Origin: Escherichia coli
GTDB taxonomy: Bacteria > Pseudomonadota > Gammaproteobacteria > Enterobacterales > Enterobacteriaceae
Direction: 5' to 3' (one strand)
Assembly: GCF_003790525.1 (NCBI RefSeq)
Contig: NZ_CP033632.1
Length of the DNA stretch: 64,000 nt
How positions within the stretch are numbered: the stretch's first letter is position 1; the number at the start of each line of letters is the position of its first letter. Of this stretch, positions 12,001 through 18,000 are shown piece by piece. Position numbers: made by a program.

Positions 12001-15000
12001 ACCGCGCTCCAGTAATAATTTTTTAATTTCCGGCCAGTATGGGCCATAGCTGCGGTACAGGCGGGGATTTTTCAGTAATCGCCCGCGTAGCCCTGACAGG
12101 AAGAAATCAACGTATTCGTCTTCTGTCTTTCCTAACAACGCTGTACGGAGTACCGCCTCAAGATATGTTTTATTCGGTTTTATTGTATCAGATAGTGTGG
12201 CCATATTATGCGACGCCCGGCGAACCGGGCGCTCCTGTTATGCGTATTGTTGGATGACGGCCAGAACGTCCGCCACGTTGTGTTTTGTCTCGATAATCCA
12301 CCAGTTGCCCGGGAAATCGCTGTTCTTCGCCTTCGCTGGCAGCCAGCGAGCGCCGAATTTTTCCTTGATTGCGTCTTTAGCACGGAAAAGAACGCCTTTC
12401 ATGCCGGACGCCTCCTGAAGCCCAAATACCTCACCAGCTGCGAATTTTGGTGCGTACATCATCTTCAGGTCGGCGGTGGATACGCGATAATTCAGACCAA
12501 GAGACTGAGCTATGCTGGTGGCATCACCCTGTATTGATGATAACTCTTCTTGTTTCTCGTTTCTGGCGGCAATTTCTTCCTCCGTGATGTTGCCTAGGGC
12601 CAGGTTTATCCGATCAGCGTCGGCCTGTTTCTCTTCATCGGTGCGCCCGGCAAGAACCGTGTTAATTCTCTGCAATATCTCAACATGATTCTTGCGCATG
12701 CTAAGCAATTCCGGCGTAACCTCGTTAAGGTCCACCAGCCCAAGGATGGCAAGGTCGGAAAACATTGATACCAGGTTGTAGGTCATGCGATAGCTGAGTT
12801 GCCCATAGGCTGATGGCAACTGCACCGCATCCATTTGATAGGCATCCATAAATTTAGAGCCGTCGTTTACGACATCCGCAATTGCCGGTGTGATTTTCCC
12901 TGTGGTGGCGACCTCCCTGATTGCTGTTACCCACGATTGAGTCAGCGCGGCGACTGCATGATTCAGATTGGCTTTCCGTTCTGCTGCAATACGCGCGCTT
13001 GCAGCGTCCATTGCCTGCTTGATCTCGTCTTTATTGCTGTAAATGCCAATGGTGCCAAACTGTGCTGTGGTGATCTCATAATCTGACGCCCGGAACTCAT
13101 GGGTACCGAAAATGGCATTGGTGACCTCAAGTTCAGAATCCCCGTTACGAGTAGCCCCCTGGCTTGTTTTCTCCGGCATTCTGGCGATCGCATCCGCTAT
13201 TTTCTCCTGAATTGCTTCAGGGGATAGCGTATCTCCGTATGACGCGATTACTTCGCCATAATTGGAGCCAAACAGTTCAGTCAGGAATACTTCTGCCAAA
13301 CGGACCTGGCGGTTATTCCCTTCCGACATCATACCAAGCACCCATTTTGCAATTGACGACTTCAGCGCGCCGTCACGGCGATCCTGGTAAACCGCATGCT
13401 TCAGTGGGTCCGTATAGGTACCAACAAAATCAATGCTATAGCCTGACTCTGTAGTCTGAACGCCGTATGAGTCAGTGATTTTGATCATGCCGCGCTGCTG
13501 GAAACGGTAGAAATCGTCACAGGAAATGATGTCGTTAATCCCGGCGATGGAGACGCCACCACTGATTTTCTGCATAACAGCATCTTCATCGGGAGTTACA
13601 TCCACCTGTTTATCCAGCGTCTTCACATCCCAGTTACCCGATTTGGTGCCTTTGAAGGTAAAGATGATCTCCACGTCTACGCGCTGGCTGTCGAAGTCCA
13701 GCGACTTAATGCGAACGATATCACCGGCACAATCGTAGTATTGGCCTACACGCCATGAGCGATCGCCGATAACAAGGAACTCATTCGCATGGTTAACCAG
13801 ATCAGGATCAACATCCAGAATGCCTTTATTTATTGCATCCTCCACCAGCGGGCGCAGGCGTTTGATATCCGTCGCGGCCTTCTGAGTACGGTTCAATAAT
13901 TTCTCATAGCGGGAGATGGCTTGAGTGATATTAGCCTTGCGCTGAATGGCGCTTTTCAACGACGCGCGATAATGTGCTAACAACGTACGGTCTGTGTGAT
14001 GGACGCTACCCCAGCGGGCCTTCCAGTCTGCATTATCAGCTGCTTTGGCCATTACCGCCTGTTTAAATTTAGCTACCTCGGCGGTGGTCTTTTCAAGTTC
14101 CGCTTTACTTCGCTCTAATTCAGCGGTAAGAGCCGCAACATCCTCGCCAGCTGCATGTTGCGCCTTGATGTAGTTCTGAAGGTCGATAGCGGCCTGTTCT
14201 TTCTGGCGGGCGCGTTGCGCGGCTTTCGCCTTATCCATTTGAACCTGCATCATTGCCAGACGTTCGCCATCATCCTTAGCGGTATACATCTGCATTTCGA
14301 TCATATCGTTGGCGTCGGCGTTCTCCATTTCTGACTTATCTGAACGGAGGATATCGGAGATCCAGCCTGCTTTACGCTTCAGCGTCTTCAGTCGGTATTC
14401 ATCGAAAGAACCCTTGCCGCAGTAGTAATGAACGCGAACGCTTGCACGGTTGGAGCCAACTCGGGCACCGCGACCGTTACGCTGTGCGACACTGGCTGGT
14501 GTCCATGGCAACGTCAGATGATGGATGTCAGTCGTTCCTCGATGCAGGTTGATACCCACCTCTGCCTTTTTGTTGCAGATGATGATCGGAGTCCGGCCCT
14601 CCTGGAAGTCGGCTGCAATCTTTTCCAGACCGCCCAACGACATTTCATTTTGCTGCGCGATATAGGCGTCATACAGAGCCATTTGCTCGTTGTATTTCGC
14701 TATCTGTGCATCTGTTGGTTCATCCGGTAACTCTTTCGGCGGTTTAACCGCTTTCAGTTTCTTACCGGTTTTACCTGCCTCGGCAACCGTCTGAGCATTC
14801 AGGATCCTTACCTTTGAAGGTTCAAGGTTAAGAGCATTGCAGATAATGCGCTTGAGCTTCTGGTGCTGCGTTTTTTCGTCGGTGAAGATGATTTGCTTCC
14901 CTTCCGGGAAAAACTCCTTCAGCGTGGCAATCAGCTTCGCGTATTTGGGCGTAACGGGGTGAGTTACGGTCTGTTCGTCAATGCCAAACCTGGCCAGGCG

Positions 15001-18000
15001 CTTATTCACTTCCTGCTCGAACGCTTCCGGAACCTGCAACTGAATAAACTCGCCCTTATCTATCAGGGAGTATTGCGATTGCTGCGTGATTGAATCATCA
15101 CTGTCGTCGTCTTCGCTGGTGGCTTGTTTAGGCAAACTGTCCGCCAGCTGCTGCACCGCATCGGCGTACTCCGGCAGGAAACGATAGGTGATCCGGCGAT
15201 AGTACAGGTCCATGTCAGTACATACGCGGTCCATATCCCTGATTATTGAGAAGATCGGACGGGCTTTCTCGTGCTCAATCACTCCGTCTTCATCGACCGA
15301 GGTCGTTACGCCATTGTTGGCTTTGGCCACCGCTTCCGCCTGCTGGCGTAATTCTTCATACGCCGCCAGTTGTTCTTCAGTAAGTGGTGCATCCTGCTGG
15401 TGTTCGTCCAGTTCCGGGATCTCCACGGTATCCTTAACGTCTTCCGCCGTTTTAAGCGTTGTCCAGCGATGGAATATGCCGCGCAGCGCATCAAGGTTTT
15501 CAAAGCCCACCAGCGCCATTTTTTCTTCAACTTCACCGCTGATTTTCTGTACCGTTTCCAGCCTGGTCTTGCCGAAGAATTTAACGAAGTCATCAGGACC
15601 GTAGATCCCCATCTTCTGCCAGTATTCCTTCGGCAGCACATGAGAAAGCATGTTGTATGCATCGATCGGGGTGTTAACGACTGGCGTTGCAGTCAGGAGA
15701 ACCGGTCCGCGCCCACCATTCTTTTTCATCAGGTACGCGTTTTTAATTGCCATATCCCGCGCCGATTGCGCCACCGCGCTGGTGGGCAGATAGGCCAGTT
15801 GTGACGCTTCGCGACCATTTTTATAGCTATTGCGGTAGTTGTGACCTTCGTCAGCGATCACACTATCGAAGCCCATATCCTCAAAGTACGGATACTTCTC
15901 TGCTTTTTCGGTACCGGTATCTGAATACTCCGACAATACCCGGCGACGCGCGGCCTCTTTGCGGTGGGAGTCGGAGTCCATTGCGCTGGCTACGCGCCCG
16001 GCGGCAACGAAGTCATAAAGCATATCCTGTGCATGCTCATCTACGGTGTCATCACGTAGCGGAGTGCGGGCGTATTGTTCTTTGGTAAACACGACTGCAC
16101 GGTAATTTGAGTGCGGGATCGCGTTCATCCGCGCCGTGATAGTGGCTTCATCTGCCAGTTTTAGGGCATCGCGCATAACTGGAGTGCCATCAGTACCAAG
16201 AACAGGAGCACCTCCCACGCTAACGCGCGGGCCCCGAATCTCACCGTTCTGAAACCACAACAAAAAAAAATCAGGAATAAAAAACACCACACAAACACAG
16301 CACTGTACCCCCCCTCATAACTGAAAAGCGCCGCCGCCCCCGCCCGAAGGGCGGGAACAACATCGCTTTTAATTATGAATGTTGTAAGTACATTGTCATC
16401 ACTGTCAGTCTTCTGGCTGGAAGTCCTCAGTACACGCTCGTAAGCGGCCCTCACGGCCCGCTAACGCGGAGATACGCCCCGACTTCGGGTAAACCCTCGT
16501 CGGGACCACTCCGACCGCGCATAAAGGCTCTGTCATGGCTGAAAACGGGTATGGCTTAGCAGGGCCGGGGGTGGGTAAGGTGAAATCTATCAGTCAGTAC
16601 CGGCTTACGCCGGGCTTCGGCGGTTTTACTCCGGTATCATATGAAACAACAGAGTGCCGCCTTCCATGCCGCTGGCGCGGCATCAGGACAATTGAAGAGT
16701 GACGGCGCACATTAACATCAAACAGACTTGTTAAGCAGTCTTTCAGGGTGTAATCTGAAGACCTGTTAAATAGTCTCAGAGGTGTGTTATGCCCAGTATC
16801 ATTTTGTCTGACACCAGTGCAAGCGTCAGTGAGCTGAAAAAAAATCCGATGGCAACTGTCAGTGCCGGAGAGGGGTATCCTGTTGCCATTCTTAACCGGA
16901 ATCAGCCAGCATTCTACTGTGTCCCTGCTGAGCTCTATGAAAGAATGCTTGATGCCTTGGATGACCAGGAGCTGGTAAAACTGGTTACTGAACGCAGCAG
17001 TCAGCCTCTGCATGATGTGGACCTGGACAGTTATTTATGACTTATACAGTAAAATTCCGGGATGATGCACTGAAAGAATGGCTCAGACTGGACAAGACCA
17101 TTCAGCAGCAGTTCGCAAAAAAACTGAAAAAATGCAGTGAAAATCCTCATATAGCTTCTGCAAAACTACGTGGATTAAAGGACTGCTATAAAATCAAACT
17201 TCGCGCATCAGGTTTTCGTCTGGTTTATCAGATTATTGATGATATGTTAATTATTGCGGTCGTCGCAGTAGGTAAACGTGAACGCAGCAACGTTTATCAT
17301 CTCGCCAGTGAACGGATGAAATAATATCCTGGTCAGCACTCTTTCTTACCTGCTTCCATTTTTTCAGTGATTCTTTTCCTGCATGCAGAAAAAAAGCCTA
17401 CCCTGTGGGCAGGCATAACAGACAATCGCACAGTCAGTGTTGAAATTAATGATGTCACGCATTATACCCGGTGGATACACAAACCATCCCTGCAAATGCA
17501 TTGGCATCCTAATCAACGTCTGAAACAACTGCAATGGCCGGACCTGTGATTTCAGAGAAAGTTATTATGTTTATTGAATATAACCGAAGTGATAAATAAA
17601 AGTATTATCACCTTTAATATTTATGCTTATTGCGTGGTTTTATCTGGTTATATAAAGCACAGATGTTCTTATTATTTTCTGAAAAATAACGGTAATGACT
17701 CCAACTTATTGATAGTGTTTTATGTTCAGATAATGCCCGATGACTTTGTCATGCAGCTCCACCGATTTTGAGAACGACAGCGACTTCCGTCCCAGCCGTG
17801 CCAGGTGCTGCCTCAGATTCAGGTTATGCCGCTCAATTCGCTGCGTATATCGCTTGCTGATTACGTGCAGCTTTCCCTTCAGGCGGGATTCATACAGCGG
17901 CCAGCCATCCGTCATCCATATCACCACGTCAAAGGGTGACAGCAGGCTCATAAGACGCCCCAGCGTCGCCATAGTGCGTTCACCGAATACGTGCGCAACA

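Follow-up and report, generated by a model that had tools for sequence, protein, structure and literature searches.

In phage P1, the Dar anti-restriction system includes DarB, a virion-packaged methyltransferase-helicase of 2,255 aa; its gene, darB, occupies complement(10469..17236) in P1, and beyond it lie the promoter PdarB and the neighboring gene prt. The first 30 residues of DarB serve as its capsid-targeting signal (PMC9024508). In IncFII plasmids, the origin is placed between repA1 and repA4, and ter sites are found in the repA4 region, which matters for stability and proved necessary for maintenance in a transposon-insertion screen of pEC958 (PMC4398462). Plasmid pEntH10407 extends this order to repA1-repA4-stbD-stbE, the last two genes encoding proteins of 83 and 95 aa (PMC2762410). 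Here we describe a locus in a 64,000-nucleotide stretch of Escherichia coli contig NZ_CP033632.1 (assembly GCF_003790525.1), referred to as the window, in which parts of all three systems lie side by side. A sequence-only reading of the window had proposed a DarB-like gene, carrying a helicase alone, behind a run of seven C and about 470 bp of structured noncoding DNA. With a probability of roughly 0.87, we interpret the locus as a recombination scar in a degraded P1-derived plasmid, where a nonfunctional darB fragment abuts passenger cis-acting DNA. All of its components are already known, and nothing in it is new in kind.

A mechanical open reading frame (ORF) call returns the 1350-aa frame that had been reported, at 12238..16290 on the (-) strand with a GTG start. 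All but its first 28 codons derive from P1. This portion, hereafter darB' (12238..16206, (-) strand), consists of the 3' 3,969 nt of a P1-type darB (1,322 codons plus the stop codon) and is 97.8% identical at the nucleotide level to P1 NC_005856 positions 10469-14437. In megablast searches of phage genomes, window 12000-16206 matched 18 P1-like phages at 97-98% identity; all 18 matches end at 16206, which corresponds to P1 nt 14437, and the DNA beyond 16206 is absent from all 18 records. The fragment begins at approximately P1 residue 934, its in-frame beginning reading '...PVLGTDGTPVMRDAL', and the window protein joins P1 DarB at PVLGTDGTPVM. About 933 N-terminal codons are gone, and the 3' 59% of the gene is kept. 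The suspicion that the ORF is a P1 darB truncated at its 5' end where accessory DNA begins is therefore borne out by the P1 alignment. Homologues that are naturally about 1350 aa long did not emerge, since darB' covers only positions 921-2278 of the 2278-position phrog_1685 profile. Like P1 darB, darB' sits in its native lxc-ulx-darB context, with lxc (82 aa) and ulx (146 aa) intact and directly downstream (11519..12204, (-) strand).

The break falls within the helicase core, between motifs Ia and II, and leaves the ATPase core incomplete. When the translations are compared, P1 DarB is seen to have Walker A (GTGLGKTT) and Ia (YVVPKSVLENW) motifs about 70 residues ahead of the breakpoint, and neither is in the window ORF. 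The earliest helicase motif in darB' is DEGH (motif II), and from there onward motifs II to VI and the entire C-terminal part are retained, as in P1. Pfam searches of darB' returned Helicase_C and a weak SNF2 signal and nothing else, with no methyltransferase domain. Similarly, TIGR04095 matches P1 DarB at residues 834-899 and has no match in darB', and the PHROG methyltransferase matches to P1 DarB (residues 49-284) are without an equivalent there. These results agree with the earlier observation of helicase motifs, motif II among them, in the absence of a recognizable motif I or methyltransferase domain. They also show that "helicase-only" overstates what is left: because the break removes motifs I and Ia, and with them the ATP-binding P-loop, darB' encodes an incomplete helicase. 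In further contrast to P1, darB' lacks the N6-adenine methyltransferase domain and, given its start near residue 934, the capsid-targeting signal (aa 1 to 30). The native promoter, ribosome-binding site, and start codon are lost, PdarB and prt are gone from the locus, and the host element has no capsid genes. We infer that darB' is most likely a nonfunctional gene fragment that is no longer expressed as an active product.

Several observations weigh against this conclusion. The 3,969-nt remnant contains no frameshift or nonsense mutation. Its lineage-specific changes number 43 synonymous to 16 nonsynonymous, a ratio that full-length alleles share (33:13 and 9:7), and the window copy thus shows no positive signature of pseudogene decay. 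The NCBI annotation pipeline (PGAP) also labels darB' as a protein and not as a pseudogene, with a start at ATG 16128 in place of the GTG and a 1296-aa product called "helicase-related protein." A recent truncation fits the intact frame, without proving loss of function: the frame is still open because truncation is recent relative to allele divergence, and since most of the divergence predates the truncation, a test for relaxed selection on the truncated lineage is uninformative. We therefore weighed the view that darB' is a functional, naturally shorter paralogue of DarB that kept the helicase alone and took a new promoter from plasmid-derived DNA. The frame intact over 1,322 codons, the retention of the native partner ulx downstream, and the PGAP protein call speak in its favor, as does a promoter-like site on the correct strand (ATGACA-16-CATAAT, 16399-16372). 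This is the only such site on the darB' strand, but one match is what shuffled sequence yields (0.8 expected), and it lies directly upstream of a compound hairpin that is terminator-like on that strand. No Shine-Dalgarno sequence was found ahead of GTG 16290, the TTG codons, or ATG 16128. Given in addition the deleted Walker A and Ia motifs, the missing capsid-targeting signal and methyltransferase domain, a host plasmid unable to make capsids, and relatives that lose further pieces of the fragment, we consider a working short DarB highly improbable.

The other side of the break is plasmid DNA. A four-way alignment sets the recombination junction between P1 DNA and plasmid-origin-flank DNA at 16206..16207, with at most about 2 bp of possible microhomology. 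The 28 codons that extend the ORF upstream to the GTG (16207..16290, (-) strand) are plasmid-derived junk. No insertion sequence (IS) end was found at 16206/16207, and the nearest element, an IS1, begins at 17691, 1.5 kb away; an IS-mediated origin of the junction was rejected on these grounds, and the DNA upstream of darB' is likewise not the end of an IS. A 240-nt probe spanning the junction was intact in 138 records, representing 136 of 5,426 E. coli genomes, while in records that lack the junction it split precisely at 120/121. This distribution points to a single ancestral event that marks a clade. Junction-bearing copies are at least 99% identical, and among relatives with the same allele darB' has been eroded further, by an IS3 insertion and by several partial deletions. 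The name "helicase-related protein" is likewise given to other alleles of darB, with about 97.5% identity to this one, which suggests independent darB truncations in other P1-like plasmids.

From 16207 onward, the window carries the repA4 region of IncFII-family/I-complex plasmids. Positions 16207-16683 are 92-94% identical to DNA of IncK, IncFII-family, and IncFII plasmids across about 375-480 bp. At 90-95% identity, the block starting at 16207 is shared with over 5,000 plasmid records, most of them for conjugative plasmids of Escherichia, Klebsiella, and Salmonella, and it is found in 4,187 of 5,426 complete E. coli genomes. Its position relative to repA is regular, at 366 bp in the IncFII-family plasmid pO26_2313_1 and 368 bp in an IncK plasmid; in IncFII plasmids the homology starts from window 16308, 473 bp past repA. 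In pO26_2313_1, a DnaA box (TTATCCACA) at about 1050 precedes the equivalent of window 16207, at 1239, by about 188 bp, and the same box stands about 188 bp ahead of that point in IncFII plasmids. The minimal oriR of R1 is 188 bp long. In both IncFII and pO26 plasmids the equivalent of 16207 falls after the AT-rich repeats, and the captured fragment therefore starts at the right-hand boundary of the minimal origin without including any part of that origin. Its elements are ordered as in the repA4 regions of the IncFII plasmids NR1, R100, and R1 and of the IncK/B/O/Z/I-complex: first the compound hairpin, then a Ter-like site, the invariant blocks, and finally the distal hairpins. A toxin-antitoxin module follows, as it does in native plasmids. 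The window copy differs in being detached from repA and the minimal origin and in residing in a replicon of the P1 (IncY) type. The annotation of an identical-junction plasmid contains no repA of the IncFII type, and no cognate RepA or minimal origin (DnaA box, RepA site, and AT-rich repeats) lies nearby. A search of the phage collection with the 376-bp structured block gave no match, and the block is thus not a phage element. The sequence-only reading had raised the possibility of a cis-acting site left over from a rearrangement, and in substance this was right: the structured DNA is the origin-distal repA4 region of another replicon.

In some records, PGAP labels this segment "replication-associated protein RepA4." The IncFII RepA4 ORF has 128 codons, is of low complexity and rich in proline, arginine, and serine, and spans the hairpin, the Ter site, and the invariant blocks, over the equivalent of window 16207-16583. 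In the window it is broken, with a 22-aa piece left, and it is unannotated in IncK and pO26-type plasmids that keep the DNA. Since the ORF is broken or unannotated where the DNA is conserved, the conserved feature appears to be the DNA and not a protein, and the "RepA4 protein" is probably a spurious ORF over conserved cis-acting DNA. A single-stranded DNA promoter of the Frpo type, as in conjugative leading regions, was also considered as an identity for the block and rejected, because the block always adjoins repA-ori and not oriT or leading-region genes.

The structure of the region was much as had been described. The hairpin cccgccc-gaa-gggcggg lies exactly at 16339-16355, and the folding of 16300-16790 as single-stranded DNA is strong relative to dinucleotide shuffles (z = -3.2 on the (+) strand and -3.8 on the (-) strand). 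The description of the region as GC rich holds for the hairpin stems but only modestly overall (54% G+C, versus 48.6% in the window). Its characterization as 470 bp of noncoding DNA applies up to the last ~100 bp, which are the likely promoter/operator of a toxin-antitoxin operon, and the claim of no ORF on either strand is not literally correct, because ORFs of 22-139 aa exist, e.g., 16535..16702 (+), 16161..16454 (-), and 16594..17013 (-). The two that were tested, 16535..16702 (+) and 16161..16454 (-), had no NCBIfam match.

We derived block coordinates from an alignment of nine plasmids. The block opens with an A-rich spacer (16207..16314, (+) strand) that in donor-type plasmids adjoins the minimal origin on its right and shows little conservation from one plasmid group to another; it contains runs of nine A (A9, 16262-16270) and seven C (C7, 16308-16314). 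A conserved 64-nt compound hairpin follows (16315..16378), with outer (TCATAA/TTATGA), middle (AAAAGCG/CGCTTTT), and inner (CCCGCCC-GAA-GGGCGGG) stems and a fold z of -3.8 on the (+) strand and -5.5 on the (-) strand. Across the nine plasmids, four of its pairs show compensatory changes on both sides (alignment columns 123/186, 127/182, 149/161, and 151/159), and runs of T follow it on both strands, so that in sequence it resembles a bidirectional terminator. Three invariant blocks that form two hairpins (16431-16451, 16459-16484, and 16501-16519) are identical in all nine aligned plasmids, while their flanks fall to about 70% identity; the region 16431-16519 folds with z = -3.4 on the (-) strand and -1.8 on the (+) strand. 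Distal hairpins at 16585..16683 (ACCGGC/GCCGG; CGCCGGGCTTCGGCG followed by TTTT; and ATGCCGC-TGGC-GCGGCAT; z of about -3 on both strands) make up the right end of the block common to IncFII and IncK plasmids, and homology to most plasmids stops at about 16683. As cis-acting DNA elements, the GC-rich hairpins are native to the donor replicon.

Overlapping the end of the compound hairpin is a Ter-like site matching the Tus-binding consensus (16377..16390, (+) strand; GAATGTTGTAAGTA), with a C-to-G change in the GTTGTAAC core. It agrees with 13 of 14 consensus positions and is the sole such match in the window, although a match with one mismatch is at chance level in 64 kb. In the alignment (columns about 180-197), the core reads GTTGTAACTA in all eight native plasmids (IncFII, IncK, I-complex, and others), whereas the three P1-derived copies, that of the window among them, read GTTGTAAGTA; no native copy aligned has the C-to-G change. 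Specific to this lineage and at a position that is otherwise invariant, the substitution could mean that a Tus barrier was lost in the new replicon or was selected against there.

The leading strand of R1 and R100 is reportedly primed by DnaG at a "G site." This site lies a few hundred base pairs downstream of oriR, and plasmid G sites have three conserved blocks (A to C). The three invariant blocks at 16431-16519, with their hairpins, fit this description and are a candidate for such a primase G site, and hence for the leading-strand start of the donor replicon. A second candidate combining CAGTAC with a hairpin, at about 16594, counts against this assignment.

These features raise the question of whether the repA4 block is still active in cis in its new setting and has been kept for that reason, through priming at the G site, through a fork barrier or former barrier at Ter, or through a terminator that insulates the toxin-antitoxin operon. 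Such activity would be compatible with a scar origin. The three invariant blocks are intact and the hairpins unchanged, the compound hairpin is strongly folded on both strands and followed by T-runs, and the Ter core holds the sole change among universally conserved positions, one common to three P1-derived copies; moreover, stability of native plasmids needs repA4 (PMC4398462). However, in a lineage so young that its copies are at least 99% identical, conservation carries no weight, no cognate RepA or minimal origin is nearby, and one relative already carries a substitution within a core hairpin loop. We therefore regard continued cis activity as unlikely, if still worth keeping in view. A bolder proposal is that the hairpin, Ter site, and G-site-like core travel with toxin-antitoxin cassettes as a portable unit combining fork management and addiction and useful in non-cognate replicons, in which the core would prime DNA synthesis or insulate transcription and the Ter change would be adaptive, inactivating a Tus barrier at which forks from the P1 origin would otherwise stall; this we consider distinctly doubtful. 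Under the scar interpretation, which we favor, the hairpins have neither their cognate RepA nor their origin and would most likely be passengers that hitchhiked with a selectable addiction module.

The sequence-only reading had also raised a structured RNA as a possibility, and folding of this strength might indicate a regulatory one, such as a riboswitch, a small RNA, or a leader, acting on darB' or on the downstream toxin-antitoxin operon. Significant folding and the compensatory base changes in the long hairpin are what such an RNA would produce, but a covarying hairpin is equally expected of a terminator or of a single-stranded DNA element, and the most conserved part of the region is invariant in sequence instead of covarying. 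Rfam searches yielded no match at E ≤ 1 in 11000-19000 and none at gathering score in the block region. Furthermore, elsewhere the block precedes unrelated genes (tir/pemIK, yacAB, copG-relE, and hok) and always comes after repA-ori; it follows the origin whatever gene lies downstream. An RNA serving either neighbor is accordingly very hard to credit, and cis-acting DNA of the donor origin remains our interpretation of the region.

The run of C near the start of the long ORF had led to the suggestion of a homopolymer-controlled start. A run of seven C is present, although at 16308-16314 and not at 16309-16315, and an in-frame stop (TGA) does lie just upstream of the ORF. The C7 tract, or the A9 tract, might be a phase-variation switch for translation of the darB fragment, and a -1 slip in the former (G7 to G6 on the coding strand) would join the long ORF in frame to an ATG at 16316-16318. 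Length variation does occur at the A tract: A9 is A8 in the aligned relative pJNQH497-2, and we infer A8 also in the majority of near-identical relatives, whose sequence is 1 bp shorter. With A8, however, an in-frame TGA arises at the tract and deletes the 28-codon extension, and this stop, standing between the C tract and the ORF, makes the C tract irrelevant. C7 itself is unchanged in pJNQH497-2, the reliable relative, and is shorter only in pSCLS1, where all homopolymers are shortened. Over window 16120-16800, six of the seven differences between pSCLS1 and the window are homopolymer shortenings of 1 or 2 bases (A9>A7, A6>A5, C7>C5, C5>C4, and G5>G4), a pattern typical of long-read sequencing error and not of real variation. 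In addition, native plasmids have varied C-rich sequence at the position of C7, the ATG lacks a ribosome-binding site, and the product would still have no P-loop. Given that C7 is constant in pJNQH497-2 and that A9/A8 varies only upstream of credible starts, shifting nothing beyond the junk extension, we rejected phase variation at C7 and give a homopolymer switch at either tract next to no credence.

To the right of the block, the toxin-antitoxin operon is of the stbD/stbE type (16789..17324, (+) strand), as indicated by TIGR02385, RefSeq annotation, and synteny. An 83-aa antitoxin of the Phd/YefM type (16789-17040) and a 95-aa RelE/StbE toxin (17037-17324) overlap by 4 nt, and the toxin scores 35.4 bits on TIGR02385 (RelE_StbE), above the cutoff of 27.9. 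In protein lengths, in the overlap of stop and start codons, and in the position after repA4, the pair matches the StbD/StbE (RelB/RelE-family) system of pEntH10407, and we noted no difference of consequence; its DNA is about 93% identical to the copy in pO26_2313_1. That plasmid has the same order (repA-ori-repA4-stbDE), and its homology with the window stops at the relE stop codon; stbDE was captured together with the origin flank. Between the repA4 block and the operon, two imperfect 18-nt palindromes 35 bp apart on the (+) strand (16724-16741, AGACTTGTTAAGCAGTCT; 16759-16776, AGACCTGTTAAATAGTCT) are kept only in plasmids with the same toxin-antitoxin pair (pO26_FII and p102_629a), and they likely form the stbDE operator/promoter. 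Across plasmid groups, the slot after the origin-distal block is occupied variously by tir plus pemIK, yacAB, stbDE (Phd/RelE), copG-relE, or hok/DUF5431, and seems to form a hotspot at which toxin-antitoxin cassettes are exchanged.

The darB/repA4 junction is the left edge of an accessory island of about 23 kb. P1 homology returns at about window position 39080, with bplB, pmgG, and genes 21 and 22. In the P1 reference MH422554.1, matching segments end at 7918 and restart at 45981, and hence about 38 kb of P1 has been swapped for the island. The missing P1 segment covers the portal, protease, lysis, DarA/Hdf/Ddr, tail-fiber, and baseplate genes. Plasmid pS163-2.4, which is 100% identical over 12000-17400, likewise has no portal, tail, lysis, or pac genes. 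Since DarB acts only when packaged into virions, an element of this kind has no use for it. The window plasmid is in these respects an ordinary member of a class of P1-derived phage-plasmids that have become plasmids, keeping repA/parAB, c1, cre, lxc/ulx, and a few tail genes and having most morphogenesis genes replaced by IS-rich cargo; within that class, the darB/repA4 junction marks one clade, that of the 136 genomes.

We propose that one illegitimate-recombination event at 16206/16207 fused the 3' 59% of darB to DNA of an IncFII-family/I-complex plasmid. The captured block would have run from the right edge of the minimal origin through the repA4 region to stbDE with its operator. The same or a closely linked event would have removed the ~38 kb of P1 DNA, with its genes for morphogenesis, lysis, and the Dar system, and imported the ~23-kb island. 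No new biological mechanism is implied. The relevance of the locus lies mainly in annotation: in about 140 E. coli plasmids, the RefSeq entries "helicase-related protein" and "DEAD/DEAH box helicase" are DarB fragments without a P-loop, and counts of helicases or of anti-restriction genes should leave them out. The junction is also a convenient marker for a P1-derived lineage that traded about 38 kb of virion genes for cargo.

The remainder of the window offers some observations on the plasmid itself. Between the relE stop codon and the first IS to the right of the captured block, 366 bp (17325-17690) match neither pO26_2313_1 nor P1 and hold a GC hairpin (gcctaccctgtgggcaggc). That IS is a complete IS1 of 768 bp (17691..18458) with both terminal inverted repeats, whose transposase is annotated in identical plasmids. 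It is one of three complete IS1 copies in the accessory island, the others being at 26133-26900 and 30528-31295; none is at the darB junction, and it is plausible that IS1 copies drove assembly of the island. Past the first of them, an ORF of 1171 aa (18635-22150, (-) strand), whose counterpart in a relative is annotated as an autotransporter outer-membrane beta-barrel protein, is cargo with no relation to P1. At the island's right edge, a sok antitoxin RNA (RF01794, 114 bits; 39208-39382, (+) strand) lies about 130 bp inside the point at which P1 homology resumes. Three tRNA genes on the (+) strand (55712-55784, 55790-55862, and 57670-57742) are probably the P1 tRNA cluster, and that part of the P1 backbone was apparently kept. 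In the left-hand resistance region, a match to the AAC_AAD_leader/attI model (2307-2378, (-) strand; 70.6 bits) indicates a class 1 integron. Among plasmids with the same junction, pS163-2.4 carries an IS26-flanked qnrS2 and pJNQH497-2 carries intI1.

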